From NCBI GenBank assembly GCA_026770705.1, contig JANJGN010000089.1:868001-932000 (forward strand): a stretch of 64,000 nucleotides of DNA, written 5' to 3'. The position numbers and the translations under genes were made by a program. The notes beneath the pieces were generated by a model. The model saw only the letters and a program-made list of their open reading frames with translations, did no database searches and had not been told where the DNA came from. This stretch comes from Isurus oxyrinchus (Eukaryota). The stretch's first letter is position 1. Every line of letters starts with the position of its first letter. This document shows, piece by piece, positions 18,937 to 56,364 of this stretch.

Positions 18937-19877
18937 TTATGCTCCAACAAGGGCAGGACGTTTGGCTTTGTTTTTATTCATACTTGTACCCAACGACAAA
19001 ACAAATTTCCAAGGAGATTTCACCACACTAATGAGCTCATCTCTGAACTTTGTTTGTGTCGCTGCATAAATGCATGTGTTTGTACAAGACTTCAACTGGG
19101 TGAGCATGTATCCAGTCTCATTGACAATATATGCAGGGTTTGTATATTCTCGTCGGAATATTAGAACCAGGGCATCAGTCCACTGACTCACTACTGATAT
19201 CAGACTTAACAATATAAAATTTGCCGACAGGGCGAACAGTAAAATAATGGATTTCCTTCGGTTCTCCATCTCTGCATCGCGCTGATTCCCAGTCCTGGGA
19301 GCCCGGAGTCTCCTGCAGGCAATATTGGTTATGATAATGCGTCTCACTGTTAAACAATTAAATAGTAATATCAAAGCAAAAGGAATCAATGAAAATAGAA
19401 AACTTTGTAATCTGAAGTAGGCTCCGCCTGCAGGCGATCTGAGAAAGGACATACTGGGGATGAAACCCCACTCAATATTGTTAATTATTATTTTATGTTC
19501 AAATGCAAACCAAAAAGGGATGCTCTCTAAACAAATTAGCACAGAAACAATTATTATGATGATGGACGCAGTTCTCACTGTGCAATATCTGGTTTTCAGT
19601 TTCTCACAACATATAGCAACAAACCGGTCACATGTGAAGGAGACTGTAAACCAGACGGACAAACCAACATTGGTAGAAGTCATGTACAACATAAGTTTAC
19701 AAATAAAGGTATAGGAGAGGATTGAATTTGGAAAACGTTCCCGCATAATTTGATGCCCAATTCTATGGATGAGCGTGGCCAGTAGATCCACTGCTGCCAT
19801 GGCCACCATGTATATAGAGATACTTTTGGAAAGGTGGCAATTTCCTTTGCAGAGAGTCACTATTGTCAGTAGGTTCA
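18937..19877 (-). CDS. Exon 2 of an intact class A (rhodopsin-family) GPCR, GPR139/GPR142-like
   Basis: Open frame of 313 codons with hydrophobic TM segments and motifs NLLTIVTL, YMVAMAAVDLL, SVWFTVSFTCDRFVAICC, EMENRRKSIILLF, SCTNTCIYAATQTKFR. A polypyrimidine tract plus CAG acceptor lies directly upstream (CTCTTCTCCCTCTTTCTTGCAG, AG at 19879-19878). The GTG start in the ORF track is the splice junction, not the true start. Confidence 0.92.
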
Positions 19878-20389
19878 CTGCAAGAAAGAGGGAGAAGAGT
19901 TAAATAATGGGGGACACTCAGGAACACCTGGCCATAAATTGCGGGGAAATTTACAGATGTGCTTCTATTTGCAATTGACAGCACGGTTTCCTTCCAGAAT
20001 TTTAGGCAAGCATTGATGGCACTTTTTTCCCCAATCAAATAAGCAATTTAAGACTGAATGCCCTTCATACATATTTCATTTAAAAGGTAACAGAGTCTTT
20101 CGGAATCAGGTAGGGGAATGCTGAAAGTGAGCGACCTACATCAAAGAGACCCAGACTCTAATAACCCAAGACAGGAGTCACTAACAGGGATGGTGGGGTG
20201 TAGCAGTTGTAGGGGAATGCTTGGTAGCAGGAGGCTGATTGTGGCAGGCTTGCGACTTCAGATGATATTTTAATATGAGTCGTTTTATTTGTAGTCATTT
20301 ATCTGTAATTCTTCTACAGCCATTTGTTTTCCATGATTGAAATGCAACCAACTCCAATGTTAAGGAAGGATGGGATGTAAGTGGCAACA

Positions 20390-20760
20390 ACTAGAGCTTA
20401 TATGTATATAGTGCCATTAACGTTATAAAATCTCTCGAGGCTCTTCAAATAAGTGCCATAAAATCAAAATAGATAGGGAGCAATTGAGGAACACTTAGGA
20501 CGGTGGCAAAAAGCTTGGTCAAAGAGTGAAACTTTATGGAGCATCGTGAAAGGAAGAAGAGACGTAGAGAGGCAGAAATGTTTATGGTTGGAAATTCAGG
20601 GAGCAAGTCCAAAACAGGGTCCGAATTCTGGAACAATTAAAACTGGAAATGTCTACGATGCCCGATTCAGAAGGTTGGAAATGTCATCACGGTCCGTGGA
20701 GTTGGAGGAGATTTCAGATATAAAATGGGTGAGAACTTGTGGTAATGGGTTTTGGGGTTT
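20390..20760 (-). mobile_element. L2-type LINE 3' fragment (intronic)
   Basis: The reverse complement ends CGTTAATGGCACTATATACATATAAG, an L2-type tail, and contains TTTGACCAAGCTTTT. Confidence 0.6.
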
Positions 20761-21294
20761 GGACGGAGGAGGGAGGCTGAATGTGGGAATCTGCGGATTG
20801 TCACAGTCTTAACATAATATTCATGGGTTAATATAGTATAAACTGTCTAATACATGCTAACAACAGCTGGCAGTGACTAACACGAGAAAGAACGTAGCAA
20901 ACAAGATAAGTCCTTTGTTTATACCATTCTATAAAGGCGGGAACCATCTAGTCGAATTCCGAATTCACCTATGCACTGCGTTCACCACCGGTGGCAAGGA
21001 ACCTGAAGATATCTCTGGACAAGCCGCCACCACGTTGTCTACAATTTGTAGAAGGATATGAGATTATTGCTACAATAATTGGGCCTTCACCAGTGAAACT
21101 GGTTCACGACGAGTGCCAAGGAACATGAGGATATCTCTCGAACAGCCGTCACCACGGTGTCCCCGACGAGCAAAAGGACGTGATGTTATTGCTTGTCGGT
21201 ATGTAAATGTAATAAAGTGACATTTATAATCAGTTGTCTCCTTTAATTCCACGAATATTGATCATATCCGAACAAAGAATTATACTTTATATCG

Positions 21295-21885
21295 TAACAG
21301 TGGGGAAGGTGAGGCTTGCAAGCAAAGATGAGGATTTTAAAATGAAGGATTTGATTGATCGGGAGATGTATTAGGCCAGCAAGCATAGGCATGATCAGTG
21401 AACGTGATTTGTTGTTGATAAGGACTCGGGTAACAGAGATTTGGATGACCACAAGTTTAAAAGCGGCAGAATGTAGGAGGAGGGGCAGGTGTGCATTGGA
21501 ACAGCAAAGACTTCAGGTAACAAAGACTATAGAATGAAGGTTTCCACAGCAGATCAGCTGGGACTTGGCAAAGTTGGAAAATGTTGCGAAGATGGATAAA
21601 TACCGGCTACGAGATAGAAGGGATATGTCATCAAAAGCTAATCTCAAGGTCAGCTCCCACACTCAGTTTGCAAGCAGCCTTGTTTAGCCCCAGACAACTT
21701 TTCAGCAGAGGAACATAGTCAAATTTAACAGAGACAATGGCTTCCAGCTTTCCGATATTTAATGAGAGAAAATGTCTGATCATTCACTATGGATATGGGT
21801 GGGGAAAGCAGCCTGATAATTTAGTCGAGGTGGAGTAATCGAGAAGTTGGATGGTGAGACAGAGCTGGATGTCATCAGTGCACTT
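21295..21885 (-). mobile_element. L2-type LINE RT C-terminal fragment (intronic)
   Basis: ORF 21243-21452 LIMPMLAGLIHLPINQILHFKILIFACK matches L2 ITPVLxxLHWLPVxxRIxFKIL; a TDDIQL (ADDxQL) remnant lies near 21870. Confidence 0.7.
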
Positions 21886-22225
21886 TTTAAATTGATTCAT
21901 AGTATGTGGGATTCGCTGGCTAGGCCAGCATTTGTTGTGCATCGCTAAATGCCCATGATGCTGAGCCACCTTCTTCTACTGCTGCATCCAGTGTGGTGTG
22001 GGTACAGCCACAAAGCTGTAAGGGAGGGAGTTCCAGGATTTTGAACGAGTGACAATGATGGAATGGCAATATATTTCCATGTCAAGATGATCAGTGGCTT
22101 CGAGGGGAAATTCTAGGTCGTAGTGTTCGCACATGGCAGTTGTCATTGTCCTTCTAGATGGCCGTGGACTTGGAAGATGCTGCTGAAGGAGCCTCGGAGA
22201 GCTCCTGATGGAGTCCCTGTTCATT
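21886..22225 (-). mobile_element. 3' fragment of the LINE family seen at 5341-8560
   Basis: ORF 21976-22224 (TRSKSWNSLP..VAVPTPHWMQ) parallels 8216-8548 (TGSKTRNSLPTIAVGVPTRHGLQ); same tail. Confidence 0.8.
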
Positions 22226-22389
22226 TGAAAACTATTGTTACGTTTTAGGGTTTTTTTCCACTAGGGGAAGCATGTTTATGTGAAATAGGAAGCCAGCAGG
22301 TAGAAATCCTTGGAGTGCTTTGAATATCAGAGCTAAGGACGCAGATGTGGAAAGAGAAACCATTGCAACCTTCTCTGGCTATGATTAAA

Positions 22390-23050
22390 TGAAACAGAAT
22401 CACATGGAATCAAGGGATTGTTCGGGCCCAACATGGTTGCACCAGCTCTCCAAATGAGTAACTCACCTAGTATTATTCTCCCCACCTCCATTCTTCCCGT
22501 AACCCTGCACGTTCTTCCTGTTCAATTCACTTTGATACCTTCAGTGGAATCATCCTTCACCAAAGCCTCGGGCAGTGCACTCCAAACCCAAACACGGGCT
22601 ACATAAAAACGTTTCTCTTTATATCACTTTTGCTTCCTTTAATAGTTACATCAAAACTGTTCCCTCTCGTTCTCGATCCTTTCACAAGTGGAACAAATTA
22701 TCACTTTCAATTCTGTCCAGGCTTCTCATGATTTGGAATGCCTCCGTCAAACTTGCTCTCAATCTACTTTTCTCCATGGAAAACAGTACCAAAGTCTGCA
22801 ATCTCTCTTCAGAACTAATTTTCGTCATCACTGGAACCATTCTCGTGAATCTATTCAGCACTCTTTGTAATGCCTTCTCATCCTTCCTGAAGCGCCCAGA
22901 CTGGACGCAATCCCGGCTTTGACGCCGAACTTAGGCCTTTTACAAGTGCAAGATTAATGCCTCGCTCTTGTACACTTTCGATAAATCCAAGGATACTGTC
23001 CGCATTTTTCACTGCATTGTCAACATGTCGTGCCAACTACAATAATTCAT
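22390..23050 (-). mobile_element. CR1-type LINE 3' fragment
   Basis: The reverse complement has GTCCAGTCTGGGCGCTTCAGGAAGGATGAGAAGGCATTACAAAGAGTGCTG (RKDxxALxRV) and a CR1 tail near 22400. Confidence 0.75.
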
Positions 23051-23849
23051 GAACAAATATTCGTTTGATAGTACAGAACTTGAGTACTTTTGAAAAAAGA
23101 CATTTTGTGAAGCTTTTCCGCTTGCACTCTTGAGGGCATTCGCATGAATAGGAACGTCAGGGTAAATTTTCGGCAACGCTGTCCAATTGCAGAATAACAT
23201 CTCATGTTGGAACAATGTGTTAGGAGTTCTTCAAACACTCGCTCGTTGGGTGCAGTCTGCAACTTGTCCGAGCACACAACAGAAGCAACATGCTGTTTGA
23301 TACAATCCGGCAGGTCTCGTATCAAACAGTACATTCCTTTGCTGTTCGTAAGGCGAAAATACTGACGTTACGAAACAGCCCGTTTTTCAAAACTCAAAGG
23401 ATAGTGTTAGAATAAGATGTGATTCTGCGATTGGACAGCATTTGCTAAATATTCCTCACCATGTTAAGTATAACGCTGGCAACCAATTTAAGAATGTCAG
23501 TCGGGATCGCAGTGTATCTGTACACAGTTCTCCGTTCTTTTCTGACAGAAAGAACATGTGCACGCATAGCGCCTGTTTCAGTTAAACAAAATAGTCATTG
23601 CCATTCCCTCGTCCTTTCCGTGGGGTAATGTCTTGAAGAATGAGAGCCAAGCTGCATGTTTTATAATTTGAAATAATTCTTCGCAGGTAACCGTCAGTCA
23701 CCATTAGCTGGAGAATTTTCCAAGCATAGCCTCTACCATTCAGACTCTACTTGTCAAACATTCAGGACTCTCTTTTCATACAGTATCAACTGTTGCTCCC
23801 CTGACTGATATTCTTGCGATTGTCCTGATGATTGCAAGGCAAACATCTT

Positions 23850-24765
23850 TGACAACATGTATTTTTTCAGCAATACTAATTTATTCTGAACTCTAGTCTC
23901 TCTGCCACTCCACACCCTTTAGAGCTGTACATTTTTTTGTATATCTCCCTTCTCCCTGCCAAAATGAGTCACTTCACAATTTTCTGCATTGAACATAATC
24001 TGCCAACTGTCCGGCCATTCCACCAACTATTCTACTCCCTTTGATGTTCTAACCATCCTCCTCACATTTCAAAATACCGCAAGGTTTTATATATCTGCAA
24101 CGTTTGGAATTTTGTCATGTAAACAAAAGTTGTTAACAAATATCAGGGAAACCAATTGTCCCCAATACTGATAGAAAAGCAAAAAAACTGTGGATACTGA
24201 AAATCCAAAACAAAAATAAAAATAAAAATAACCGGAAAAACAAAGCAGGTCTGGCAGCATCTGCGGAGAGGAACACAGCTAACATTTCGAGTTGTGTTCA
24301 AGAGTCTTAAGGAGTCAAAACGTAAAATGTGTTCCTCTCCGCAGATGCTGCCAGAACTGCTGAGTTTTTCCTGTTTTTTTTAAAAATTTTTTGTCCCCAT
24401 TCTTATCACTAGGGATCTCCACTATAAACCTTCCTCCAGACCGAAAATAAACCTGCAGCAAGTCATCCTGTTTCGTTTTCCTCAGCTAATTCTGTATCCA
24501 CAATGCTGCTGTCCCTTTTATTGCATGAGCTGCTACCTTGCCAAAAAGTCTGTTTGATGAGATAGCATCAAATGCCTTTTAGAAGTCCATGCACACCATA
24601 TCAACAGCATTGTCGTCATCAACCGTCTCTGTTATCTCTTTGCAAAAAGGTCTCCAAATTATTTGAACAAAGTTTTCCATGATCAATCCACCCATTCCCA
24701 TGGAACCAAGAGAGTGCAGTCTCAAATTCACTACAAGACAATGAAGAACGTTTGAGCAGGATGGA
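23850..24765 (-). mobile_element. CR1-type RT fragment, interrupted by a Penelope inverted repeat at 24172-24395
   Basis: ORF 24579-24779 ends EITETVDDDNAVDMVCMDF, followed by a KAFD-like segment; a KxADI (FADD-like) remnant lies near 24095. Confidence 0.7.
24172..24395. repeat. Palindromic Penelope terminal-repeat pair (perfect 28-bp arms)
   Basis: TCTGGCAGCATCTGCGGAGAGGAACACA at 24250-24277 has its exact reverse complement at 24328-24355. Arms extend imperfectly outward and match the terminus at 17385-17450. Confidence 0.85.
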
Positions 24766-24839
24766 TTGGTCAACTGCATCTGCAGGTAGGCCCAGGAAGC
24801 TCAGCACAGACTTTTGCAGTTATATAGAATTAACGTGTT

Positions 24840-25220
24840 ACTTTGATAGAAATAAACTTTGGTATGTTGTTGAGCTGAAATCTTTCTCGAGGAACTCAAG
24901 CATGGCATTCTGAAAAATACGTGCTCAAAATTAAAAAGGCAACAATGCATTTCAGGATTTTAGACAGGATATGGGTTTTGGAGTTGGGGCAGGACTCTGG
25001 GTAAAATGACCTTTTTGAGGAGAGAGGTGACCGTGAAAAGTAAGACCTCAACGGAAGAAAGAGAACAATATCACATGGCACGGGCTACAACAGTTTTGGG
25101 TATCAGGTGTGTAGTCGGAATAGAATTCAGGAAGCCAGGGGGTGGGTCTCATTGACAAGGCAAATTTGAAAAGGAAACAATGCGATGCGAGTGCCACGCA
25201 GCAGCATTGCAGTTCTGGAG
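24840..25220 (-). mobile_element. L2-type RT fragment
   Basis: ORF 24896-25081 contains HILSKILKCIVAFLI (cf. PFLSKILEKVVAxQL). Confidence 0.5.
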
Positions 25221-26107
25221 AAAGAACGTTCTTAATATTAAACATTGGATGGTTCTATAATTTAGTTTTAAATTTAACCTATAGTAAAATAACTATCTTA
25301 CATATATATGAATGGATAATTGTTTGCTAAATTGTGAGTGCTAAAACATCGTTTTCTGGAGCTTGCACAGTAAGGTCTACCTCCCCAATTTTCTGAGTTC
25401 CCACTCCAGGCCCACGGTGCAAATCACTGAATTTTACATTTCTTTCCGGCCACTTACTTGGAGACAAGCATCGTGCGAGCGGCAATCGATGCTATTAATG
25501 TTCAATATAATTTCCAAACAATAAACGGGAAAAAAACAGTTCAAATGAAATATTGAGAAGAGAATGAATATCTTTCAACATATTTGAAAACGCTGCTCTG
25601 TTCGTGTTTACAAGCCGAGAGAGGGAGCTGCTCTGAAACTGAGCGGGTGCTGATCGAAAAGTAGAAAAGTTCCAACCCAAAGTTTGGGAGCAACAAACAT
25701 ATTGATAATAAAAAAAAAATCAAGGCCTGTGTTGACCGTACGGAGTTGCAGTCAGAAGAAAAATCGAGTTAAAGTACTCAGCGATCAGCATGTCAACCAG
25801 CACTGATCGTCAAAAAATGCCGAGCTTGCCAGAATTCCAGGGATGAATAAAAACGTACAATTCATTAAATGATCTACCAAATTTTGGATTGAGGCAAATC
25901 AGCTTTGACCTGTCTTATTAAAGTGAGGAGACCTGTTCCACTAATCTGCCGAACAAGCAGAGCCTCTCAGCTAGAGGTGGGCTCCTACATTTTTCCGTGC
26001 ATATTTAACATGTTATGGCCCTGGATAAATGAGCTAAGGAGGGGAATCTCATTCTGAATATAATCATATATTCAACAGCTATCAGACAGCAGGATACACT
26101 GACTTAC

Positions 26108-26177
26108 CAGGAGTACCAATGGCTACGAGCACGGGATAGTAAATATCCTTGATCTGTAGAATTATTGGCCGCTCCAT
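26108..26177 (-). CDS. Coding exon 1 of the intact GPR139/GPR142-like GPCR
   Basis: The reverse complement is AAAATGGAG...CCT G|GTAAGTC, encoding MERPIILQIKDIYYPVLVAIGTP plus 1 nt (70 nt). It has a canonical donor, and the phase-1 junction G+TG joins exon 2 in frame, completing TM1 (AIGTPVNLL). Intron 19878-26107; 336 aa in total. Not in the ORF track. Confidence 0.9.
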
Positions 26178-26249
26178 TTTTCAGAAGAACCTTCGTGTGC
26201 AGTCCTGAATTGCTATTCCGATTGGAATTTAACTGAGATCCTTATGAGA

Positions 26250-26310
26250 TCGCATTTATAATACAATTGGTGCCCAGATGAGTAAAGCAGCTTGCACAAC
26301 ATTTCGCGTT
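26250..26310 (-). promoter_or_regulatory. Candidate core promoter of the intact GPCR
   Basis: TATAAA at 26260-26255 on the minus strand, about 78 nt upstream of the ATG. The adjoining block resembles sequence at the equivalent position upstream of paralog 3 (56445-56507). Confidence 0.4.
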
Positions 26311-27069
26311 AGTTATAGGCACTTAACAAACAAAGAGCTGTTGCCACTTCAGTGCATTCAGAAAAACAATGTCAAAATTGAACAAGTCAGTCAACGAAAC
26401 ACCTGCCATTGAAATTCATCAACCGAAAAGAATCCCAGAGGAAATATGTCTCAACGTATACATGATTATTTTGCGTATCAGTATGTCGACGGCCCAACAA
26501 GGGTACTTGACCTAGTTTAGATCCATTTTAGAACTACGAGTGTGCAATAACGAAGGTTAATTAATAAGCTTACAAAAAAATATTTCTAAGGAAGAGCGAA
26601 AATAATATGGTCGAACTTAAGATTTTGTTTTCGGAAATGATGTGATTTACCCTGAATCTGGGATGATGACTCTCGAAATAGCAAACAGATTGAACTGGAA
26701 TGCGAGCTGTCAAACGTAGTTATGGATTTTAAACATATGATTCAGGATAAACAACAGTTAAAATTAAAATTACGACTACACAATTTTAAACACGTATAAA
26801 TTCATTTAGGGTACACCAGCCCCACAACAAAAGATAAGTGGCGTAACGATAACGAAAATGAGATTTAAATATAGCATAATGTCGCCAGGCTGACTACTAA
26901 ATCATTGGAATGAAACGATTTTAGTATTCAGTAAGAGGGGACCTAACGTTTAAAAGGGTAGACTAAAGAAAATGCGATATTGCACCAACTGCTATTTTTA
27001 TTTTAAAAAGGTTCTAAAAATTTCTATAAAGTATGCAGCTGAGAAAAGCAATCAATTGTGAGAGTAAAC

Positions 27070-27861
27070 ATTGACCCATTGGACAGAGATTAAAGGTGAA
27101 ATATAATGCAGGATGGGGAGATGCCTCAGAAACGATGCAGAATCAATGCGAAGTCAAATATCAAGTGAATATAAGGAACTTGCGGGCATCTGCATCAACA
27201 AAAACGCTCGACACATTCATGGCACTAAGTGGCCAGCAATAACCCAGACTTTACTGGCTGGAGAGTAGAGTTTTACAGACGAGGTAGTTGCAAACATAGC
27301 GGATGCATTGGATATGATCTTTCAGAATTACTTAGAATCCAGAACAGTTCCCAAGTATTGAAAGGTAAGAAACCCGAATATATAGGAAGGGTGCAAGAAA
27401 GAAAACGAGGCACTATTAGCTTAACATCATTGCTAGGGAACGCAATTTCTTTTTCTATTCGGATTGTGCAAATAGAACTATTGGAAAAGCATAATATAAT
27501 CCAATAAACTCGACATGGATTTGTGAAGGGGAAATTGAATGTGGCAATCTCATCAGCATTTTCGAGGGTTTAATTATGTGGAGGATAAGGGGAACACAAG
27601 TGAATGTTAAAATTCGATGTTCAGAGAGCATCCGTTTTGTAATCTTAAAGGTGCTGGCATTATTTAGAATTCATGGGATTTAGCGTAATATATTAGCAGG
27701 GAAAAAGAAATGATTTTTGGGCCGACAACCGAGATTAGGAAGGAAAGAGAAATTTTCAACTTGGCAGGCTGCAATTACTGCGGTTACAGATGGATGAATA
27801 TTTGGGTCTCAGCTATGTACAGTCCATATTAATGGCTGACATGATGGAACTAATTTCAAAG
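27070..27861 (+). mobile_element. CR1-type RT fragment, 5' part; resumes at ~32733-33090 after the Gypsy insertion
   Basis: ISLTS, HGFVKG and a YINDL-like CATATTAATG end at ~27850. The next motif (AAGTTTACTGACGATTCA, KFxDD) appears at ~32743. Confidence 0.65.
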
Positions 27862-36234: not shown

Positions 36235-38450
36235 GACAGCATGCAGAGTGAAATATCAGCAGAATTATACACAACCACAATCTGTCACCCCATAGCCCAG
36301 GATATTCACCAATCTACCAGTACTATCAAGCCAAGGGATCATCTTGTTTCAATGAAGAGTGGAGGAGAGCATGCCAGGAGCTGCAGCTGGCGTAACAAAA
36401 AACGAGGTGTCAAACTGATGAAGGAACAAAATATAAGACTTACGTGCCAAGCAGTAGAATCAGCAAGTGATATTTGGAGCGAAGTGATTCCCCAAATGAT
36501 GGACGATATTTGTGTTTTGTAGTCCTACCACATGAATTTATGAATGGTGGTGGACAATTCAGCAACTCACTGGAGAGCAAACCTCCAAAAATAACCCCAT
36601 AAGAATGATGGGGGGAACCCAACAGATCAGTACAAAATATAAGGCTGAACCACTTGCAAACAACTTCAGCAGATGTGCAAAAAGGCTAATTCATCTCGGC
36701 CTCCTCAGGAGGTCCCCAGCATCACAGATATCATTCTTCAAACAAATCGATTCACTCCATGTGATATCAAGGAAAGTCTGAAGGCATGCTATATTAAAAT
36801 GTGATGGGAACTGAAAATATTTTGACAACAGTATCGAAGACCAGTGCACCACCTGCATCTGTACCCAAGCTTTTCCAGTAGAGCTAAAGCACCTGCCCGG
36901 AAATTTGCAAAATTGCTCAGGTATGTCATGTACACAAAAAACAGGCCAAATCCAACACAACCAATTTCCGCCCTATCTACCTCCGCTATCAGTATATGGA
37001 TGGAACTAGTCACAAATTTTGCTACCAAGTGGCACTTATTTAGCAATAACCTGTTTACTAAAGATCAGTTTGGGTTCCGCCAAGGTCACTCAGCTCATTA
37101 CCTCCTTACAGCCTTGGTTGAAAGATGGAAAAAAGAGTTGAACATGAAAGGTGAGGCAAGAGTAAATGCCCTTGACATCAACGCAACATTTGACAGAGTG
37201 TGCCATCAAGAAGCCCGAGGAAAATTGGATTCAATACTATTCAGAGTTAAAAATCTCCACTGTTGGTGTCATAGCTAGCTCAAAGGAATTTGCCTGTGGT
37301 CGTTAGAGGGCAATCAGCTCATTTCCAGGACATCACTATAGGAGGACCTCAGAGTAGATTCCTAGGACAGGCCCTCTTCAGTTCATTCATGAACAACCTT
37401 CCTTCCATCATAAGTTAAAATGTGGGAATGATCATTGATGATACAGCTTTATTTGCTACTCCTCAAATACTGAAACAGTCTATACAGCAAGACATCCATT
37501 CAACCTAGGCTTGTGCTGACTTGTGGAAAGTAACAGTCACACCACAAACGTGCGAGACAATGTTAAGATCCAACAAGAGAGAATCTAACCCTCGCCCCAT
37601 TGTCCTTTAATGGCATTACCATCGGTAAACCCCACCATCAGTATCATCGTGCTTGTCATTGACCAGAAACTGAACTGGACTAGACATAAACCCACTTTAG
37701 CAAAAGCAGCTAGCCAATGGCTAGGAATTCATCAGCCAGGAAATCGCCTCCTCCCTCGCCATTGCCTACCCAACATCGACAAGGCACAAGTCAGGGGTAT
37801 GTTAGGTTTCTTCCCACTTACCTGAGTACGCACAGACCCAACAACTTTCAAGGAGCTTGGCACAACTGCATTTCTTTTCCACCCTTTCCAATAACATTTC
37901 ATAAATCTACACATTTATCCTTATGTTATTGCAAACAACCCTGCTATTTCTGAAGCAGGCGATCGCATTAATATGGCTCACTATCCTCTTGTCATGTCCT
38001 GCAGCAATCAAATACATTTTCAGATGGAACGACAGTTCCCTCTGACCCTGAACACGGTCCTGAACACTCCTTCCACCAGCCACGCACAACAACAGTTTTA
38101 CCATCTACAAGAAGCAGTGCAGGAACTCAACAAATCTCATTAGACAGCACGTTATAAACCCACGGCAGCTAACACCTAGAATACGGGCAAGGACAGCAGA
38201 CACATGGGGAAACTACAACTGGAGATCCCCTCTAAGACATTCACCATCCTGCCTTGGAAAAATAATACTGTTCCTTCACTGGCCCAGTATCAAAGTCTGC
38301 GACCCACCTCTCTAACAGGAATAAGGGTTTACCTTCACCTCTTGGGGTCAGCAGCTCAAGAAAGCAGCTCACCACAAGCTGCTCAACAGTAATTAGGAAT
38401 GGAAATGAATGTTGACCATGCGAGCGACGCTCACATCAAACAAATTAATA
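36235..38450 (+). mobile_element. Decayed copy of the LINE family at 5341-8560 (RT region and tail)
   Basis: ORF 36844-37278 NNLFTKDQFGFRQGHSA...ARVNALDINATFDRVCH; IDQKLNWTRH; tail near 38400-38450. Contains a foreign inverted insert at 37901-38055. Confidence 0.85.
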
Positions 38451-38479
38451 CAAAACTACAAAATATATATAATGGCACA

Positions 38480-40444: not shown

Positions 40445-41317
40445 TGTTATGTTAGTCCCGACTGTAATCTGATCTCGTGGAAAGTGTGTCTCCAAATGTT
40501 TAAGCCGTTACATGGTGGCCATGACAGTGACCGATCTACAGATCATTATCATTGATCTGATTTTGCGTAAGATCCCAATTGCTTACCGGCGACAGCTTCT
40601 ATTGATACGGTCTATCCCTGTGTGTAATATTCATGCTGCTTTGCTTTCTGCAACAGACTGTTCAGTTTGGTTCAACGTGACTTTCACATTTGATCGATTT
40701 GGGACGTGTTGTTGTCAGAAGTTGAAAACTAATTCCTGCACGAAGAAAATGGTTGATTTGGCATTTGCTTCTTAAATGACAGCACCTGGTATCTTATGTT
40801 AAGAGGTCAAGATTGGCATACGAACAGATCCTGGTTTTGTGAAGCACATGACATTGTCCATCAAGCATTGGTTTGGGTAATCATTGGGCTCCTTCTATTT
40901 ATTTTCACACCCTGATACTCATTTGTTCTGATACTGTTGTTGCACGCAGTGAATGCCCGACAAATAACAGTATCGAACAGATTTCGAAGGAGACGCTGTC
41001 AACCCAGCAGTGCCGGAAAATCCAGAGACCTGGAACTGGGAAGTTGGAGAAAACCCAACATTTTGCTGTTTGCTATCTCGGGGATTTTCATTCTGCTCTG
41101 GGCAATATTTCTCTGTACTCTCTATGGCACCGAATGTGGTGTTAGGGGTATCATTCTGCGTTTCCACATGCATATCCGAGAACTGGGATACGTGCTCCAG
41201 CTCTTTGGATGCTGCACGAACATTTATTTTTCTGCAATGACTCAGGCTAAGTTCAGGAAACACTTGAAAAATATTTTACATTACCATAGTAGATCAGTTG
41301 TAAATTTAATCAAATGA
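40445..41317 (+). pseudogene. GPR139/GPR142-like GPCR pseudogene (paralog 2, exon 2)
   Basis: SRGKCVSKCLSRYMVAMTVTDL...PVCNIH..ATDCSVWFNVTFTFDRF..CCCQKLKT, then a stop at 40773-40775, an apparent TM4 deletion and frameshifts. The 3' part reads ILLFAISGIFILLW...CCTNIYFSAMTQAKFRKHLK. A possible decayed exon 1 lies at ~40290-40368. Confidence 0.85.
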
Positions 41318-41660
41318 TTATAGGAAGTACCAACATTCCAGCAATGTAAATCGTATCGTGTTCAACCCGTTCTCCCACGTACGGCAAATTATATTGGGTA
41401 ACATTTTCACACTTACTCAGACCATGTGTGGGCAACAAAATGCTGCCAGTGACTGATTATGTATTATAAGACATTCACACTGATCGCAGGAAAATCAATA
41501 CAACAGAAAAGACCACAGGTTAATATTGACGTTTTCAATGAGTAAATCAAGCCATACTGTAGAATATTTACACTATGGTGAACAAGGTAGATCATGTTAA
41601 AAAATCCTCCACCTTTTTTGAGCAAACTCTCCTAGCATACTTTCAGTGCTGATTTGTGAC

Positions 41661-41875
41661 GGAGTAAAGTTCAATCTACACTGCCTCGTCAAAACTTCAC
41701 GTGGTCAGGTACAACACGACGTTAGATGTAGAATAAAGTTCTAAATGCACTGCCCCATTAAACAATTGCACAACTGTAAGGGTACCGGATTGGACACCGA
41801 TTAATAGCCCTCTACAATGCTCGTTGAAGTTTACAATTGCATGTGCATCACAGAACTAAGCACAGAATAAAGTTG
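41661..41875. repeat. About three decayed units of a ~69-bp satellite
   Basis: GAGTAAAGTTCAATCTACACTG / GAATAAAGTTCTAAATGCACTG / GATTAATAGCCCTCTACAATG / GAATAAAGTT recur at roughly 67-70 bp spacing, followed by a poly-G run at ~41888-41910. Confidence 0.6.
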
Positions 41876-43439: not shown

Positions 43440-44555
43440 AAGCCTGTCAACGTGAGAATGATCCATCTATCCCTATGTTCTATTTTAAATCCTTTAACTA
43501 AACCTCAATCCATGCTAGTATATTTCCGCAAATCCTATGAACTCTAATTATCCTTACTAACATCCGATATGGGAGCTCATTAAAACCTTCTAGAAATCTA
43601 AATCCATCACATCCATTCGCTCTCCCTTATAGCTACTGCTAGTAAAATTCTCAAAGAAAATCTATCGGGCTTGTCAAACATGAATACCCTGTCATAAATC
43701 CATTTTGGCTTCGCAATCTCAGCAGGTATCACAGGTTTTATTATTGATTCTAGCATTTTCCGTCCACTTGATATCAGGCTAAGAGGTCTACAGTTCCCTA
43801 TTTTTTCCTCTTATAGACTTTTTAAATAGTGGGGTCATATGTGCAATGTTCTAATCTTTAGGCTCCATTTCTGACTATATCTAATTTTGGAAGATGTTCA
43901 TCAAAGCATCCATTTTCTCTACAGCCATCTCTTTGAAGAGTTTGGAAAGTAAATCATAGAGTCCAGACCAAATAATTCCTCCAGCACAACTTCATTACAG
44001 ATACATATTTCTTTCACATATTCGATCTCACTACTTCCTTTTCCACCTGAATGTTTCGGGGGGTTGGGGGCGACGAAGGAGCTTCAGTGTTTCTTTTATC
44101 CTCCTTCTTGAAGACAGGTCAAAAGTTTTTATATAGTGTTCTGCAATTTCCTTAGTCCCCATTATTAATTATGCAAACTCGGCCTGTAATGCACACACAT
44201 AAATTATTAATAAACATTATCAACTTTTACTAACCTTTACGAAACGTTTTCTTTTTTACATAACTATAAACGCTTTTGCAGTCAATTTTTGTGTTCATCA
44301 CTAGTTTAATCTCAAATATCTTCTCTTTCATTACCAATTTCATGCCTCTCTTTATTCTGATTTTCAAAATTATTCAAATCCTAAGCCATACCATTTCATT
44401 TGGCAAATTTACATGCCTCTTCTTATTGCCTGTTAGAATCCTTAATTGCCTTTGTTAGCCATGGTTTTGTCTGCTTTCCTACTTGCTTTTTGTACCTTAA
44501 ATGAATTAATTAGTATTATATTTAAATTAATTTATTGAATAGTTCTAGAAATGGC
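43440..44555 (-). mobile_element. Old CR1-type ORF2 fragment
   Basis: The reverse complement has GGGAACTGTAGACCTCTTAGCCTGATATCA (GNxRPLSLxS) and GATTTAGATTTCTAGAAGG (LDFxK). Confidence 0.65.
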
Positions 44556-44559
44556 AGTT

Positions 44560-47500: not shown

Positions 47501-48445
47501 TAAATGATTTGGAGGAAATGTTACTGTGCTAATTAGTAAGTTTGCAGACGACTCTAAGGCTGGAGGAGTTGCAGATAGTGAAGAGGGTTCTCAAAGGATA
47601 CAACGGGATATAGATAGGTTGCAGAAATATACGGAGAAATGGCACATGTTGTTTAATCTGAACAAATGTGAGTTAATGCATTTTGGAAGGTCTAATAGAG
47701 GCAGGAATTATACAGTAAATGGCAGAAAACTTAAGTGCATTGACGGGCAGAGGGATTTGGGTGCACAGGTCCACTGGTCACTTAAGGTGGCAACGCCGGT
47801 GGATAAAGTAGTCAGGAAGGCATATGGCATAATTGCCGTCATTGGCAGGGGTATTGAGCATAAAAGCTGGGAAGTCAAGCTGCAGCTGTATAGAAACTTG
47901 GTTCGGCCACACTTGGATTATTGTGTGCAATTTTGGTCGCCACATAACCAGAAGAACATGGAGGCTTGGAGAGGGTGCAGAGGTGGTTTACCAGGATGCT
48001 GTCTGGTCTGTAGGTTATTAGCTATGCGGAGCGGTTGGATAAACTCGCATTGTTCTCATGAGAGCGACGGAGATTGAGGGGCGACTTGATAGAGGTTAAC
48101 AAAATTATGAGTGGCATGGAGAGAGTAGATAGAATATTTTTCATAGGGTGGAACAGTCAATTAAAAGAAGACATAGATTTAGGGTGAGAGGGGAAAACTA
48201 TAGAGGAGATATGAGGGGCAACTGTTTTTTTTTTATGCTGAGGGTTGTGAGTGTCTGGGCTTCGCTGCCAGTGGAGTTCGTGGAAGCAGGTACGATAGTA
48301 CTGTTTAAGAGGCGGCTTGACAATACATGAATAGGATGGGAATAGAGGGATACGGACCCCGGAAGTGCAAAATGCTTTAGTTGACGGGCAATATGATCAG
48401 CGCAGGCTTGAATGGCCGAAGGGCCTGTTCCTGTGCTGTACCTTT
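44560..48445 (+). mobile_element. Near-full-length CR1 (HER1-like) LINE: ORF1 zinc finger and SGNH esterase, ORF2 APE-RT; inactivated
   Basis: ORF1 AIIIRNSIVRGLDRRFCGRERDTRMECLLPGGRV (decayed GDS esterase motif). APE KCIIFNVRSITDKADEL and RQDREGGRRGAGVALLVK. RT KSPGPDGIHPRVLRE, GNYRPVSLTSV, YMDFSQAIDKV, ISKFADDSK. Tail TGGCCGAAGGGCCTGTTCCTGTGCTGTA at ~48412-48440. Confidence 0.93.
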
Positions 48446-50329
48446 CACTCAGCGCCCCTAGCAGAGCCAGCCACAGTGACCCGAAAGTTGTGTCCGGTTT
48501 CCTGGATCGTGGAGCTCTTCACCAGTATTGAACCGCTGTCTGCCATGAACGACTAGAAGGTTCGACAGGAAGGGTGGGGGTCGAGGGGGGAGGTGGGGAG
48601 TGGTGTTGGGGTGCGGGTGGGTTAAATGAATGGTACAAGGAAAGATCTCAGGGGACATTTTGTAAATTGGCCGTAAGGTGTCTTCATTTTCCTCTGTTGC
48701 TGCACACAGGAGGCCGCAGTGAATTTGAGCCCACTTGCTGGGGAAATTGTAGCTAATTGAATCCTTCTGGGGACCTGCCAAACAATGCCGATTGTAAAAC
48801 GGCCAAAAACCGGGTTAGGAACTGAATCTAAGTAATTGTTTCCCAAAATCTTCTGCTTGGGCTTCCGAGTATAGGTCAAAGTCATCCATTTCATAATGAA
48901 TTCAGGCCCATGATTTAGATTCTTGTCCAAACAGTGCAGTACATGCAATGATCATTGCGCTGATACTGAGGCAGATGCTAAAAGCTGCAGAAAATATAAT
49001 AGAAACTACCCCGTTAAATCAATCCTATTCATTAAAAATTGACTGAATTCTCAGACATTCCAATGTTATTTTTGCCGAGTTTAGAATGGAGATCAAGATC
49101 TCCCAGCACACTTTTAATCTGCAGCTGGTCACCATGCTGCAGGAGTGAGGGCACAGAAGGTGAAAAAAGTAAAGACCAAGTGTAGTGTGCCATCTCCTCA
49201 GCTGGACTCCATGGCAATGGGAGTGGCACACCAAAGAAAAAAAGTGAAAACAGCTTCTTTCACTTGAATCTAGTTTTTGAAGCCCAGCTGACCGCTGTTT
49301 CCAGGGATAATTGCGAAGTTTGAGGATGAGGAGGAGGAGGAACCAACTACTGCCAGGACAGTGTCAACCTCCACCAGTGGCAGCTAGCAGTGCTCAGCAT
49401 TGGTGGAAACAGACACTCCGTACAAACACAACGTAAAGGAGCCAATTGATCCAGCCAGTGGGAAGGAGGAAAGGCAGCAGGAGGCTGAGCCTTAACATTT
49501 TGCCCCCAGTCAGAATGAAAACAGCCACGTCAGGCCAATGAGACGCAGAGCCCCTCACCAGCTGCATTCACAGCCACATTCTGCTGAGCTTCATTTGGCA
49601 ACAACCGAACCTATGTGGTAGGGTATTTGGCAAGCACAGTCGAGCATCGCAGGTCTAACACCATTTTATCCATCTCCATGCATGCCAGAGTTCAGCTACC
49701 GAGTGTGACAGGCTGAAATGGATTCCCCGAGGCAGTAGAATGGTGTCCTGATTGCAAAGAACGAGAGGCCACAGGCTCAGTTGAACAGCTGGGCCAAGTC
49801 ACGAGCATGTTATTTGTGTGACAATCTGGGTAAGAATTCTCTGTTCCCTGCTGTACCCCACTAATCAGCAACTTCCTCTACAGTGTGTGATTACCGTGTC
49901 CCGACACATTATGATGAATTGTTTGAGGCACCTGAAAACAGAGTTGTGTGAATAGAGATTCTGGAATTGAATGTAGTGAAATTCACCTGGATAATCCCTC
50001 GACGGCATTGCATTTATAACCCTTGGATTCTTCTGGGGAGCAAGATAAAGATCTGTGCCTTTCCTTTTTCCATTGATGCTTTGAACCCTGGTAAGTTGCT
50101 GCTCAAGTGGGACATTTTTGGTCTCTTGGAGGGCAAAGGTTGCAATTGAGAGCAGGTTTGAAGATCAAAATTGGGTGAGTGCTTGTGGAATCCTCCCTCC
50201 ATTACATGAAATTAGGTCACATTGAGTGGTCGCATCCTGCTGTCGACCTAGACTTTCCCGAGACATTCCTTGCAAAATGTGTGTCAAAGATACTGGGGCC
50301 TACATCAATTAACTGGCCTTTTTCCCTGG

Positions 50330-50640
50330 CCATGTCACTGGATTAGTAATCCAGAGAGGCTTATGCTAACTGGACACAGGTTCAAATCCAACTACGTCAG
50401 CTGATCAAATTTAAAATCGGTTTAGAAATTCTGGGATATAAAATTAACTTGAATAATGCTACCACAGATTAGAATCTCATCGATTGTAGTAAAAAAAAAC
50501 TTTCACAAATGTCCTTTAGCGATGCAAATCTGGTGCCCTTACCCATTCTGGCTTGCAGAAACGTGGTTGACGTTTAACCATTGCCAAGGGATAGGGATGC
50601 CGGCCTTGTCAGGGCTGTAACTTTTGAGAGAATGAAGAAA
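50330..50640 (+). mobile_element. tRNA-derived SINE-like element sharing head and tail with the LINE at 5341-8560
   Basis: B box GGTTCAAATCC at ~50379. Shares CTGGATTA.TAA.CCA, CCTTACC and GTGGTTG in order with 5365-5555, then jumps to a CAAGGG..AGGGATG...GAATGAAG tail like that at 56110-56170 and 8495-8555. Confidence 0.6.
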
Positions 50641-52379
50641 GACCATACTCTGCCGCTCACTAAGGCATATAGTGGCCTGCCTATTTCATTCCCGAAGCTT
50701 TGAGGTTGGTCAACACCAATGATTGATTCTTGTCACCAATGTGGGAATTTAAAGGTGAAATCACAGCGATCTCACTGAGACTCGTTGTTTATGATGGTTG
50801 AATGTCCATCATTGAAACATTTTTTTTTAATCTTTTGTAAACAGACCAGCTGTTATTCCCAGCATTATGGCAAAACTCAGAGGACAACAACCAATCAACC
50901 ACTCATGCATGCTGAAATTGCCTAGCTCCAGGGCCCACAAGAAACCATTTTTACACAAAGGATGACTCTTGGAGGCAGGATTCAAGAATGTGAGTAGGAA
51001 GGGAGATTTGACGTAAGTACAATTCGCTCAGGAAATTAAAATAGCATGTCTAGTTTTCACACCCCATGGTGTTTTAGCAGCAACGCACATTTGCAGTCAT
51101 TGTACAATCAGGAAAGCAATTTAAATCCCTAAATTTCAACACCAAGGCCAAGAGAAGATGGAACTGCAACATCGTCAGTATTTTTTTTAGCACTGAAACA
51201 ACTGGAGATACTGAAAAAATTAGAAAAGAGAAATCTGGTTGGAAGCCACCTGGTGAATGCACCCTTTACTAGTGATGTCCTACCGAACTCAAGCTGCAAG
51301 GGCAAAACTTCTACAGCAGACAGGAAGAAGTCTTTACCCTTGAAGGCCATTGACGCTGACAAGGGCGAGTGCATATAACAACCAGTAACCAGGCATTTAT
51401 AAAGCAAGTTAATATATTGCATGTAATTTTAAGGGACGTCTGGGTGGTGAAATCAACACTCGGCCTGGGACCAAATGTTTCAGGAAAAAAGTCTCTCCCT
51501 TGTGATTTTATCAAGCGAATGCGTTGCCTTCTCGGAGTTCATAAGATAGAACGGAGAGCCAATGACGTGATAGACAGAGCTGAACTGGATAATAAATAGC
51601 TGCTGCACAAATGCAAGATGGCGACCCAGCAGGAGGCTGGACAGAACAATGACAGGGCGTGGTTGGGGGTTGGGGTGTGTGGTCGGGGAGGTTTCCCAGT
51701 CACTGCAGGGTGAACATAAATATATTCACGTTTCATTTTAAACTTCATTTTACCTTACCGGGGTTCCCGGTCAGGAAATGCTTCAAGAGGAAAAAAAATA
51801 AATCACTATCAGTTTTAGAAACCCCAAATTGGGGTCAGAGGAAGTATTTTTTGCCAGCATTTGCCACAAAACAGATAACCTGAATTGATGACACTTTCAT
51901 TGTCTCCGAACTCTCCTAGGCTTTAACTGCAGGTGCAGGATTTACATTATTTCATCAGTCCGTGCATATTATTGTGCACAGGCGTCTGCCGAGTATTCAG
52001 TGACAAGTCGTGATATTGGCAATTTCCCTGAAGTCTGGTGTGAGTATTACATCCGCAGATCTAACTGTCGGCCGCAATATCTCATTAACAAATCGAGACA
52101 CTCTCCTAACGAGGAATGCTTCATCATATGCATGTGCTGATCAGAGGATAATTCAACAACTCTGTCAATCTGTAGATTATCAAGCATCATAAATTCCTGA
52201 TTGGGATTGAGGAACAGCGAGTTCCCTCAGAAAAGGCATCCTGTCATCCTTCTAATCGATGAAACAACAGAAGGAAGCTCGCAACACCTCCAGTCACACA
52301 TTTTACCACTTCAGCACTTTCAGTTGTTACTGAGTGAAGATAACCCCAGGTTTCTCCACTCTGCGCCAAGCTTCGAAAC

Positions 52380-52451
52380 TCCTCGTTAGTTTAATGATTA
52401 GTATGCCAACTGATCATGAGGGAGACTAGGGTTCCATTCCGCAATCAGGCG
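52380..52451 (+). pseudogene. Degenerate tRNA-Asp(GTC)-like pseudogene
   Basis: TCCTCGTTAGTTTAATGATTAGTAT...GGGAGACTAGGGTTCCATTCC aligns without gaps over 72 nt to the recalled vertebrate tRNA-Asp (about 51/72 by eye). The anticodon has decayed to ATC. A T-run follows at ~52456-52464. Confidence 0.75.
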
Positions 52452-52879
52452 TAGGTTTCTTTTTATCTTTAAGAAAGAAAACACACGAAATTGGAAATGG
52501 ACTTTAACACTGGACAGTTTGATATGTAAAAGACAGTGCGGATAAATATTTCTTATCAGCGACAGGCAGATTCAGGATCAGCAGTAGTTTTTTAGAGATA
52601 CCGGAATTTTAGTGTTCCTTGAGAGGAACGGCCCTTCATTCCAACAGTCAGCCCACAATTCGATATGTGTCCTAACACCAATGTTGGCTCTTTCACTTAA
52701 ACTAGGCTGAATCGGCATTTCTGTGAAATCATTGAATTTAGTTGTTTGAAAGCAGGACAGTTTGCTGAAATAAGTTATTTTAAAACCGAGAGGAACAGGC
52801 CATACACGACTTTGTAATCTAACTAGGCAGAATTCATTCATAATCTCACCGTAAAGTTGCATCTTGTAAACATTGACTG

Positions 52880-53880
52880 TAAAATGAGAGGGTTATATAC
52901 ATTATAATCTCTGCCACCATTTTGTCCATTATTAAAATGCAATTTGCCCTTTATTTCCTTTGCTTTCGGACAACAGCTATTCAGAATCCTGCCTTTCATC
53001 ACCGCACCCCTCCTAACTTTTCTTTCCTTATAGCATTGCCTCTCCCTCAGCGAACACGATGGTTCTCCAAATTCCAGTTCTATTTTCTGGTCATTTCACG
53101 ATCAGCAGATCCCTGGCACAGCGATTATTTTCTCTTTGGGCCTTTCATTGAATAAAATTTGAAAGATGATGAACGCCATTTTTATTCTTCTCTCTTCCGC
53201 CTCGCCAATCATTCAGTTGTCTTCCTTTGCAACTCTGATTGTCTCTTGAACTCCCTCCTGATACTCTTCAATTCCCGACACCAAACCACAATTCAGTCTC
53301 TACATATAACCCACTGACTGTCCCTGTGCCGTAGTAATTCGTCATGATTGCAGTAAGGATTCTATACAATTTTTTGCAAGTTTGAACAGGTATGGAAAAT
53401 CGGAAGCAATTCCCCTTGACTGTGAACAGACGACTCAGTGCCACCATCGAAGATTTAAAGCCAGAGATTTTACTGCGGGAAATTGAAAAATAATTCACTG
53501 TTCTCTTTCCCACCTGACTCCTGCTGTTAATTTACTCCCAGAATCCAAATGCCACCTCTCGCCATTGTTCCGCTGACCTTTGATGCATGTTAAACCTTCT
53601 AAGGTGTCACTACTGCCTATCTGAAAGATTCACGTGCATTTGTCCAGCTGCTATCTATTATGTCTGATTACCTCTGCTCATTTATTCCTGGTTCTCCGAA
53701 TGTTTGCCCTTTGCCCAGGCTCAGTGCAGTTCAGTGTACCCAAAACCAGCTGCGAACTTTGTCTTCATTCTCATTCTCTCTAGCCCCCTTGTCCCATCAT
53801 TAATAGCATTTAAACGTCCTTTCATCTTTGTTAATCCTCCAGGCTTTTTTCCTTTCGGACCACCGGCGGGTGCCTTTTGC
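52880..53880 (-). mobile_element. Possible highly decayed I/Nimb-group LINE 5' region
   Basis: The reverse complement has APE-like pieces (GGAGGGGTGCGG, ATTATAATGTATATAACCC = YNP-type) downstream of an ORF1-like stretch; weak. Confidence 0.3.
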
Positions 53881-53908
53881 CCCATAACTCTGTATCTTAA
53901 AGCTTCTT

Positions 53909-54793
53909 TCAAGGCTTTCTCTTAGTAATTAATTTCATAACTGATATAACCAGGTATTACACAGCACTCTTCAACTGCGCTCTGAAATTGGACTGAGTCG
54001 GCACTTGAATTAATGTGTTGGTGCAACAAATAAAATTCCGTAGCATATAGGCAATGTTTTCAAAGATATAAAAAGAATCGTTATCTAAGCCATCCGTAGC
54101 ATCAAAGAAATTTAAAATATACACCAACCACAGGAGTATGAAGCTGCCCGATATGGTGAAGTGTAAAATCACAGACTTTTTTCTGCTCTCCATCTCCGGG
54201 TCACTTTGATTCCCTCCCTTACTCTGACCCCTCAGTCCCTTACAGACCCAACTGGCCACTAAAATGTGTCTGACTGTCAGAGCGTTGAGCAAGAGAATTA
54301 CACCAAATGGTATCAATGGGGTTAAAATATTTTCAAAGTGTCTAAATCCAATCCATCGAGGGTCAGTAAAATAGCTTGGCTTATTTGAGCAGTGTCATGG
54401 TACATTCTCGACGATCCTCCTCAGTTGAATCTAAAGGAGATGGGAATGTTTTTTAAACAGATTAAAATGCCAGTTGCTGCTAGGACAATAGCCACACTTT
54501 TCTTGCTGCAATATTTAGATTTCAACTATGCACAACAATTGGCGACAGATCGATCAAAATTAAAAGCGATGGTGAACCAGACAGAACAATCTGTAGATGC
54601 ACAGAGAAGGACATAACGAACATACACACAGGAGTCATTTTCAGGACATTTAATGAGAAATAATAATCATTAATTCGGTTGAGTATGAACTGAGTAATAA
54701 TAACCAGGTGAACCGCTGTTGCCATTGCCACCAGATAGTGAGTGGTGCAGGTGGAGAGACCACAATTTCCATGGGACAGGATCACGATTGCTT
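53909..54793 (-). pseudogene. GPR139/GPR142-like GPCR pseudogene (paralog 3, exon 2)
   Basis: AIVILSHGNCGLSTCTTHYLVAMA...TPVC, frameshift, STDCSVWFTIAFNFDRSVANCC followed by a stop, further frameshifts, then LIPFGVILLLNALTVRHILVAS...DPEMESRKKSVIL..ISGSFILLW...CCTNTLI. Premature TAA at 53957-53959; probable original stop at 53909-53911. CAG acceptor at 54796-54794. Confidence 0.88.
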
Positions 54794-56039
54794 CTGAGTA
54801 AGAAAAAGGAGGGAAGATTGTCGGGACAATGCTGACATATGTTCTCTTTATTTGAGGATAGGCAAAATTGAATTTAACATCAAAAAGTTGTAGCTTGCAA
54901 ACGCTTCACAGATTAGCTAACCTCAGTCATGACCTTACAAGTCTCCAAACAGCCCATTTCCAAGTTCTTTCCCAGGCTGTTAGCAATCCCTCAGAGAGAA
55001 GAACCGCATTCACCTCGGGCCATTCACTGTGATTGTTGTAACGAGAATGATTTAAATTCCGAAGAAATTTAGTGAGTTGATGCAAGTGCCTGCAAAGCAC
55101 AGGTGATCATCTCTATTGGAAGATCACTAAAATAAGAGAGATCGGGCTAATTTGTATAATACCGTGGTGAAACACACTTAGCACAGTGTGTATGGGGCTC
55201 GAATTCAAATGACAAAACAAATATCGAGCCTTAGGGGCATTTGCACACTAACACCAACAATGAGTGGTATCAACGTCCATATAGATCCACCAAAATATTA
55301 CAGAGAGATTTTTTTTCCTCCAGAAGTAGTTGGAAAGCGAAAATAGTTCAGGCAAAATCATTTCAGAAGCAGCCAGTGTTTTAATTTTCTGAGACAGGAA
55401 TGGAGGTTACAGAAGCTGGAATGGCAAGAGCCTCTTGCAGAGCATGAAAACCAACGTAACCCACTTGGCACGAATTTCTGTGTTTCTAAATGTGTATCTT
55501 GAGTTTTAACTATTCATAGGTATCAGATTATTTTCTTTAATATTGAAACAGTCCATACATTAAATCACCACATTCATAATCCACTGGTTATCAGAAGCAT
55601 GCTTTGGAAGAAGATTAATCAGTAACAGAATTTCTGTCATTACCTTTACATAGAGTAATGTATGATAGTGGCCCACAATGAAGACGACTTTTCAAAGGCA
55701 GATGTTCCAGGAAATATATGCTCATTTCTGTCTTGTGATGCACTTCAGTAAATAACCCACACAGTTCAATTTTAAAGAAGCAAATAATCCCAATGATACA
55801 TGCGTTCTGGGGTCTGGTATTCTTCTCCAGTTAGTTGCTACATTCAGTTTAATGATAAATTGACAAATAGCTCCGGTTACACATTCTTCTCAGGAGTTTC
55901 TCGCATTGACGTTTGATTCAACAGGGCACATCATTGTGTTGAAATTTATCATATAGTGTGTCTGTGAGCTGGAAACGGTTTATATGCAACAAAATATATC
56001 TACACATGTAATTCAGGAGAGTTAATTACTTCAGTTATA

Positions 56040-56180
56040 GTACTAGGGAATCCCTTCTAAAAGCAAATTGGACCACATGGACAGCAAAGGCTCAAGAAGG
56101 CATTTCTGCTCAAGGGCAGCTAGGGATGGGCAATAAGTGGGCAGCGAAGCCCACATCCCATGAATGAATAAAAATAAAAA
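56040..56180 (+). mobile_element. Short 3' tail of the LINE family at 5341-8560
   Basis: CTCAAGGGCAGCTAGGGATGGGCAATAAG...CCCACATCCCATGAATGAATAAAAA. Confidence 0.7.
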
Positions 56181-56299
56181 AATGGATTTCTGTGTAACTA
56201 TGACAATTCAACCCAATGTAACTTGATCACTCGCAGAATAATAGCAAAAAAACAGCTCACGTACAGATTCGCTCAACGCCTTTGGACTTAGATACCTAC

Positions 56300-56364
56300 C
56301 AGGAACATCAACAATGGAAGGTTCAATTAGAATATTTTCCAACCCATTGCAGGCGTCGATGCAT
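56300..56364 (-). pseudogene. Frameshifted exon 1 of GPCR paralog 3
   Basis: GAAAATGCATCGACGC...ATTGTTGATGTTCCTG|GTAGGT starts MHRRLQWV and ends IVDVP+G, like AIGTP+G of the intact gene. Its 65 nt length is not 3n+1, so it is out of frame. Confidence 0.65.

Follow-up and report, generated by a model that had tools for sequence, protein, structure and literature searches.

A large family of class A orphan receptors in Isurus oxyrinchus, a candidate chemosensory repertoire of cartilaginous fishes

Three receptor paralogues and the family they belong to

The window analysed here is a 64,000-nucleotide stretch of the Isurus oxyrinchus genome (contig JANJGN010000089.1, positions 868,001 to 932,000), and it contains three receptor genes of a family that is real, large and apparently undescribed. 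A six-frame motif search and reading placed the three paralogues, in mixed orientation, between window positions 18937 and 56364; P1 is intact, and P2 and P3 are pseudogenes. The initial annotation had described three diverged paralogues in mixed orientation, one intact and two dead, and both the motif search and the reading frames bear this out. Their parts are as follows (TM, transmembrane helix).

18937..19877, minus strand: P1 exon 2, from the second half of TM1 to helix 8 and the stop codon; intact
19878..26107, minus strand: P1 intron, GT-AG, phase 1, 6,230 nt, inside TM1; splicing predicted from homologues
26108..26177, minus strand: coding part of P1 exon 1, 23 codons plus one base, with a GT donor
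40446..41317 (about), plus strand: exon 2 remnant of pseudogene P2, with stops and a frameshift near 40772
53957..54791, minus strand: exon 2 remnant of pseudogene P3, with frameshifts near 54622 and 54422 and internal stops
56300..56364, minus strand: exon 1 remnant of P3, 65 nt, frame-broken, with an in-frame TGA and a GT donor

P1 has an open frame of 336 amino acids, its splicing being predicted from homologues such as P0002 (96% identical in exon 1) and not from RNA. The P3 intron is about 1.5 kb long, and no exon 1 was found for P2 in the 26.5-40.4 kb part of the window. The short exon 1 that had been assigned to both P1 and P3 stands for P1, with its 23 codons and phase-1 intron, but the P3 counterpart is broken; the signatures listed as common to the paralogues are likewise only partly kept, EME.R.KS being degraded in P2, and SVW..V.F..DR and Q.KFR in P3. 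Identity between P1 and what remains of P2 and P3 is 30-42% (E = 2e-20 and 1e-37, respectively). Because P2 (44-55% to L142) and P3 (64-70% to P0137) are nearer to other subfamilies than to P1, the three genes are not local copies of one another, and local triplication was rejected as their source. Fragments of long interspersed nuclear element (LINE) reverse transcriptase lie between the receptor genes at window positions 7497-7877 and 36826-37275 (Pfam RVT_1, E = 1.3e-6 and 1.7e-4); a third, at 47508-48074, was recognised by eye only, without a Pfam match.

P1 and its family are class A (rhodopsin-like) G-protein-coupled receptors (GPCRs). P1 matches Pfam 7tm_1 (E = 1.5e-14), as does the 3' frame of P3 (E = 3.4e-5); at E up to 0.1 the only other Pfam match of P1 is a weak one to Srx, and none was found to an OR, TAAR, V1R, V2R or TAS2R profile. 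Among 53 family representatives sharing less than 70% identity, R3.50 is present in all 53 and D2.50 in 50. The predicted P1 model has seven TM helices, helix 8 and a hairpin in extracellular loop 2 (ECL2), with a predicted local distance difference test score (pLDDT) of 90, and lies closest to the peptide receptors MCHR1, opioid, orexin and galanin (template-modelling score about 0.7). The TM3-ECL2 cysteine pair is retained in 43 of the 53 representatives. The ECL2 cysteine is found in 44, P1 not among them; five keep C3.25 without it, P1 included (residue 162), so that P1 and a few relatives have lost the canonical disulfide. GPR139 lacks both cysteines. Exon 1 has 23 codons in 29 of 36 family models, none of which carries an N-glycosylation sequon in that exon. 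In one subfamily (L160, L206) exon 1 contains or adjoins a tandem repeat of roughly 33 nt, which may add 11-residue repeats to the N-terminus.

The whole genome (4.98 Gb in 5,558 contigs) yielded 7,218 first-look candidates with P1 as query; all 127 that were scored matched, about 92 of them without an internal stop by a hand count biased to top scores. An exact TM3 pattern, which is present in about 108 of 120 listed homologues, occurred 2,661 times compared with eight for the reversed control, rather than in only a few copies, and a TM3-TM6 double pattern with fixed in-frame spacing occurred 1,614 times compared with none. The 464 kb around the window hold 17 loci, five of them intact. Hand-checking of a systematic sample of 36 motif copies, from which four loci already known to be intact were left out, found exon 2 intact in 11 and dead in 25; the sample was drawn from the first 100 listed matches, 44 of which carry the double motif compared with 61% genome-wide. 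As raw counts, the sample fraction gives about 810 intact exon 2 copies (95% interval 430-1,280), and scaling by the double motif, which rests on seven intact among 12 carriers and on seven carriers among 11 intact genes, gives about 1,480. The number of distinct receptors is lower, because near-identical 20-kb repeats occur and 30 P1-like loci collapse into 14 groups at 98% identity or more, and is probably several hundred to a thousand. No family copy was found in three arbitrary 100-kb blocks (C38, C42, C35), indicating that the clusters are patchy. The initial annotation's view that these orphan class A receptors have expanded within a lineage through birth and death is upheld; the number of motif copies goes far beyond what could be seen in the window, and the pocket shows the sensory-like variation described below.

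Duplication is conspicuous. At least 20 kb around P1 (window 8884-28909) recurs inverted on the same contig at 99.1% (G000:C89:1328501-1348500), and 20 kb around P1 recurs at 98.6% on another (C116:603001-623000). Along C53, C55, C64, C65 and C79 one series of promoter variants appears again and again, which suggests repeated blocks of hundreds of kilobases, partly perhaps haplotigs. One could envisage that a small functional family was swept along passively in segmental duplications and uncollapsed haplotypes, so that the count means little. These repeats, the 14 groups and the many copies on contigs of 1-5 Mb fit such an account; nevertheless, it is highly improbable, given that deep subfamilies (mean identity 45% among 16 representatives) are common to sharks, rays and a chimaera, that public data hold 757 homologous clusters at 90%, and that the coding sequence is constrained and the promoter motifs are kept across subfamilies. 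Among the matches listed, 119 of 120 were shark or ray proteins, the best being from Carcharodon carcharias (84%), and a family member was found in a chimaera too. Most members bear the automatic database name 'probable GPR139'; others are labelled arbitrarily, for example as vasopressin V2-like or allatostatin-A receptor-like.

Ancestry and the binding pocket

GPR139 is the best match of P1 among solved structures by sequence (E = 7e-6; the coelacanth sister gene matches it at 2e-18), and the initial annotation had taken the receptors to be GPR139/GPR142-like. The genome has a single match to the GPR139 motif, which is a true GPR139 separate from the family. Two conserved orphans are also represented, each by a single clear orthologue: an A type (coelacanth XP_005988539 type), which sharks share with teleosts, amphibians and reptiles, and a B type (H3BBB8/anchovy type). 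Two trees were made, a careful one of 30 rows and a quick one of 76, with long branches included and no GPR142 sequence. In the 30-row tree the A type, the B type, a salamander orphan (Pleurodeles XP_069092602) and the shark family form a clade with 100/98 support, GPR139 lying outside, and the salamander orphan groups with the family at 97/91. A clade of the family with GPR139 was rejected by the approximately unbiased (AU) test (p = 0.0012, with long branches among the sequences), and GPR139 orthology was discarded on this ground and on that of the separate GPR139 in the same genome. The family is thus a lineage apart from GPR139, and no known receptor came out in the tree as its one-to-one orthologue.

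Of the 25 matches to the salamander gene, each amphibian species contributes about one, and sturgeon a single one. A family-like exon 1 precedes the B-type gene, although the promoter rule used below detects no TATA there, and a search for exon 1 found none for the A-type gene or GPR139. The A-type orphan of this genome (L071, G000:C9:126713131-126714114) contains an in-frame TGA in the assembly and its catshark orthologue P0284 is intact; the TGA may reflect recent loss or a sequence error. Rinne et al. 2019 described three GPR139/142-related sets from coelacanth and fish, including GPR210A/B (PMC6504862), and the accessible text of that paper contains no occurrence of 'shark' or 'milii'. GPR139 and GPR142 share an origin with the MIP, FMRFamide, proctolin and myosuppressin receptors (PMC8514136).

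The Trp/Phe pocket of GPR139 needs F3.33, H5.43, W6.48, R6.51 and N7.38 (PMC5430874, PMC8807744). This shark's GPR139 keeps all five and P1 none, having S, Q, S, S and Y in their place. The family is variable at four of the five sites: among the 53 representatives F3.33 occurs in four, H5.43 in 12, W6.48 in 45 and N7.38 in six, and R6.51 is outside the six commonest residues at its site. A Trp/Phe ligand inherited from GPR139 was accordingly rejected, P1 having none of these five residues, and, judging from these residues, GPR139-type binding of Trp or Phe is unlikely for most members. The earlier proposal of amino-acid-like ligands, which had been derived from GPR139, is unsupported, given the separate lineage and the altered P1 pocket.

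Variability was compared across three sets of positions, taken from generic numbering: 29 in the pocket, 28 facing lipid and 30 on the intracellular side. In the 53 representatives the entropies were 2.36, 2.07 and 0.57 bits, respectively, and in 25 orthologues of the A-type orphan they were 0.84, 0.96 and 0.39. Switching of chemical class was more frequent in the pocket than at lipid-facing positions in the family only (p = 0.005), with no excess in the A-type lineage. Among 11 representatives of the P1 subfamily, whose pairs are not independent, the pairwise ratio of non-synonymous to synonymous substitution rates (dN/dS) was 0.29 overall, 0.48 in the pocket, 0.30 at lipid-facing and 0.12 at intracellular positions; the coding sequence is under purifying selection.

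On balance, we favour the view that this class A family of cartilaginous fishes is a chemosensory repertoire, with many pockets over one signalling face. Receptors with differently lined pockets would each be tuned to external molecules, and the conserved intracellular face would feed them all into one G-protein pathway. The analogies with GPR139, whose primary coupling is Gq/11 (PMC8807744), and with shark olfactory neurons, which are TRPC2/Go-positive (PMC10116579), would suggest coupling through Gq or Go. The family would have grown, by tandem and large segmental duplication, from one ancestral orphan of the kind that persists at about one copy per amphibian and in sturgeon.

The peptide-receptor ancestry is also consistent with internal sensing or a cell-identity code, in which gut, gonad or central-neuron receptors respond to endogenous peptides or metabolites. 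EBF and homeodomain factors are active in many neurons, and the modelled peptide-receptor fold with its ECL2 hairpin, the likeness to MCHR1, opioid, orexin and galanin receptors and the widely retained cysteine pair would suit this possibility. We consider it improbable: endogenous ligands usually fix pockets, as in the single-copy sister lineage, whereas the pockets of this family vary, and most sampled motif copies (25/36) are dead.

Promoter, expression and the chemosensory reading

The elements upstream of P1 exon 1 span window positions 26254..26332 on the minus strand; their Fox, homeodomain and EBF labels are our assumption, made from consensus sequences.

26332-26325, minus strand: presumed Fox-like site, TGTTTGTT
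26315-26309, minus strand: presumed homeodomain-like site, TAACTAA
26281-26273, minus strand: presumed EBF-like site, degenerate, failing the EBF criterion
26260-26254, minus strand: TATA

Across the family these elements stand 5' of exon 1 in a fixed order, TGTTTGTT, TAA(T/C)TA, EBF-like site and TATA, the last about 55-100 nt before the ATG. In a first set, from which L160 and L129 had been dropped as doubtful exon 1 calls, the Fox, homeodomain and EBF-like sites occurred in 9, 9 and 11 of 16 promoters against about 0.9 expected (post hoc). In held-out promoters, scored with rules fixed beforehand, the counts were 6, 6 and 7 of 9 against about 0.5 expected, and for the six of them most distant from the training promoters the counts were 4, 4 and 4. 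The composite pattern occurred 217 times in the genome compared with 10 for the control, and a family exon 1 lay downstream in 17 of 30 cases by profile and in four more by tblastn. The motifs mark shared, cell-type-specific regulation and do not themselves give the cell type; the common promoter would restrict the receptors to a single kind of cell, which is likely to be either a sensory neuron or an epithelial chemosensory cell. Mouse OR promoters are enriched in O/E, homeodomain and TATA sites (PMC3247239).

Promoters of candidate V2R-like genes in the same genome were scored at the same positions. The V2R-like identity is taken from clustering and, for one locus, from a best match to CaSR; exon 1 was found for nine of 12 loci, and eight were scored, L271 being dropped (outside the cluster, ambiguous start). 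Comparison of family and V2R-like promoters gave Fisher p values of 0.15 for Fox, 0.05 for homeodomain and 0.002 for EBF-like sites. Six of the eight (L260, L261, L263, L264, L266, L268; G000:C2:230.7-232.0 Mb) carry TTTGGG(A/G) about 25-70 nt upstream of TATA, possibly a V2R-specific element.

Several results weigh against a chemosensory role. EBF and FOXO are core B-cell factors. The EBF match permits two mismatches (the strict form occurs in 2 of 16 promoters), and the P1 site is itself degenerate. All eight V2R-like promoters have TATA, but only two have the Fox site, one the homeodomain site and none the EBF-like site; the family promoter is therefore unlike that of known shark olfactory receptors, and it does not establish smell. 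The family difference in plain entropy between pocket and lipid-facing positions was not significant (p = 0.07), and pocket dN/dS was below 1, so no positive selection was seen. The gene counts are inflated by near-identical duplicates. Expression of members in sensory tissue is a prediction, and the 50 top specific genes of a catshark olfactory library include no GPCR in the accessible text (PMC11979771), a list that is uninformative for sparsely expressed genes. No RNA run was listed as containing P1. In four sequencing runs, guessed to be RNA and of unspecified tissue, no match at 80% likeness covered P1 and no joints were found; three of the four gave 34-72 nt contig pieces continuing into other family-like sequence, a result that speaks neither for nor against expression.

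The main rival is an FPR- or MRGPR-like repertoire on B cells or granulocytes, sensing microbial or parasite peptides and metabolites. Birth-and-death, variable pockets and a rapid turnover of copies would suit an immune family just as well, the EBF and Fox sites are of B-cell type, and the family promoter differs from V2R promoters; however, a conserved homeodomain-like site is atypical for lymphocytes, and about a thousand genes would far exceed known immune GPCR families. In the catshark, OR genes show expression mostly in tissues other than the nose, spleen included (PMC11979771), which would favour an immune role; the nearest relatives, GPR139/142 and MIP/FMRFamide-type receptors, are neuronal or endocrine (PMC8514136), which would not. 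Taken together, we regard immune sensing as unlikely, and continue to prefer a chemosensory repertoire. Within that preference, we tentatively suggest that cartilaginous fishes possess an olfactory receptor family that is undescribed, stems from the GPR139/peptide-receptor branch and numbers several hundred to more than 1,000 intact genes in this shark.

Comparison with known systems

Cartilaginous fishes are held to be GPCR-poor (PMC8455134), with only 65 genes in the known catshark chemosensory repertoire (PMC6368271), a view that is hard to reconcile with the large olfactory organs of these fishes (PMC10116579). We found no account of the expansion in the open-access literature, shark genome and chemoreceptor papers included: it is not mentioned in the available parts of PMC11979771, PMC10116579, PMC8455134, PMC10620051, PMC6368271 or the GPR139 review PMC12208981, nor in the main text, figures and supplements apart, of bioRxiv 10.1101/2025.06.08.657570. 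Thousands of copies hidden under an automatic 'probable GPR139' label change the GPCR inventory whatever the tissue. If olfactory, they would form a new vertebrate odorant-receptor family that rivals mammalian OR repertoires and overturns the view that shark smell depends on a few dozen V2Rs; an immune role would make them a receptor repertoire without precedent in size.

The family resembles GPR139 in being class A, in its best solved-structure sequence match and in the label of most members; it differs in that the genome has a separate GPR139 with an unaltered pocket and in that a joint clade was rejected. The GPR210 group (PMC6504862) and the amphibian and sturgeon orphan offer a further comparison, the A-type, B-type and amphibian genes sharing the well-supported clade with the family; unlike it, these lineages are low-copy, and the A type, in which it was measured, has a fixed pocket. 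A and B are presumed, in either order, to correspond to GPR210A and GPR210B.

Like the OR, TAAR, V1R (ORA), V2R (OlfC) and TAS2R families, this one is very large and clustered, with many pseudogenes, a short N-terminus and a variable pocket, and its promoter, with TATA and putative O/E- and homeodomain-type sites, may recall that of mouse ORs. It differs from them in its origin in the GPR139/peptide-receptor branch, without a match to their profiles, and from vertebrate chemoreceptor families in its two-exon coding structure and extra Fox-like site; shark V2Rs do not share its promoter. A precedent for a peptide-receptor lineage turned sensory repertoire comes from invertebrates, in which chemoreceptors, nematode srw among them, expanded from FMRFamide/MIP-type receptors, presumably as an independent lineage. 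As expected of a chemosensory-type repertoire, the family is large, clustered and subject to birth and death, and it combines a variable pocket with a conserved signalling face under purifying selection.

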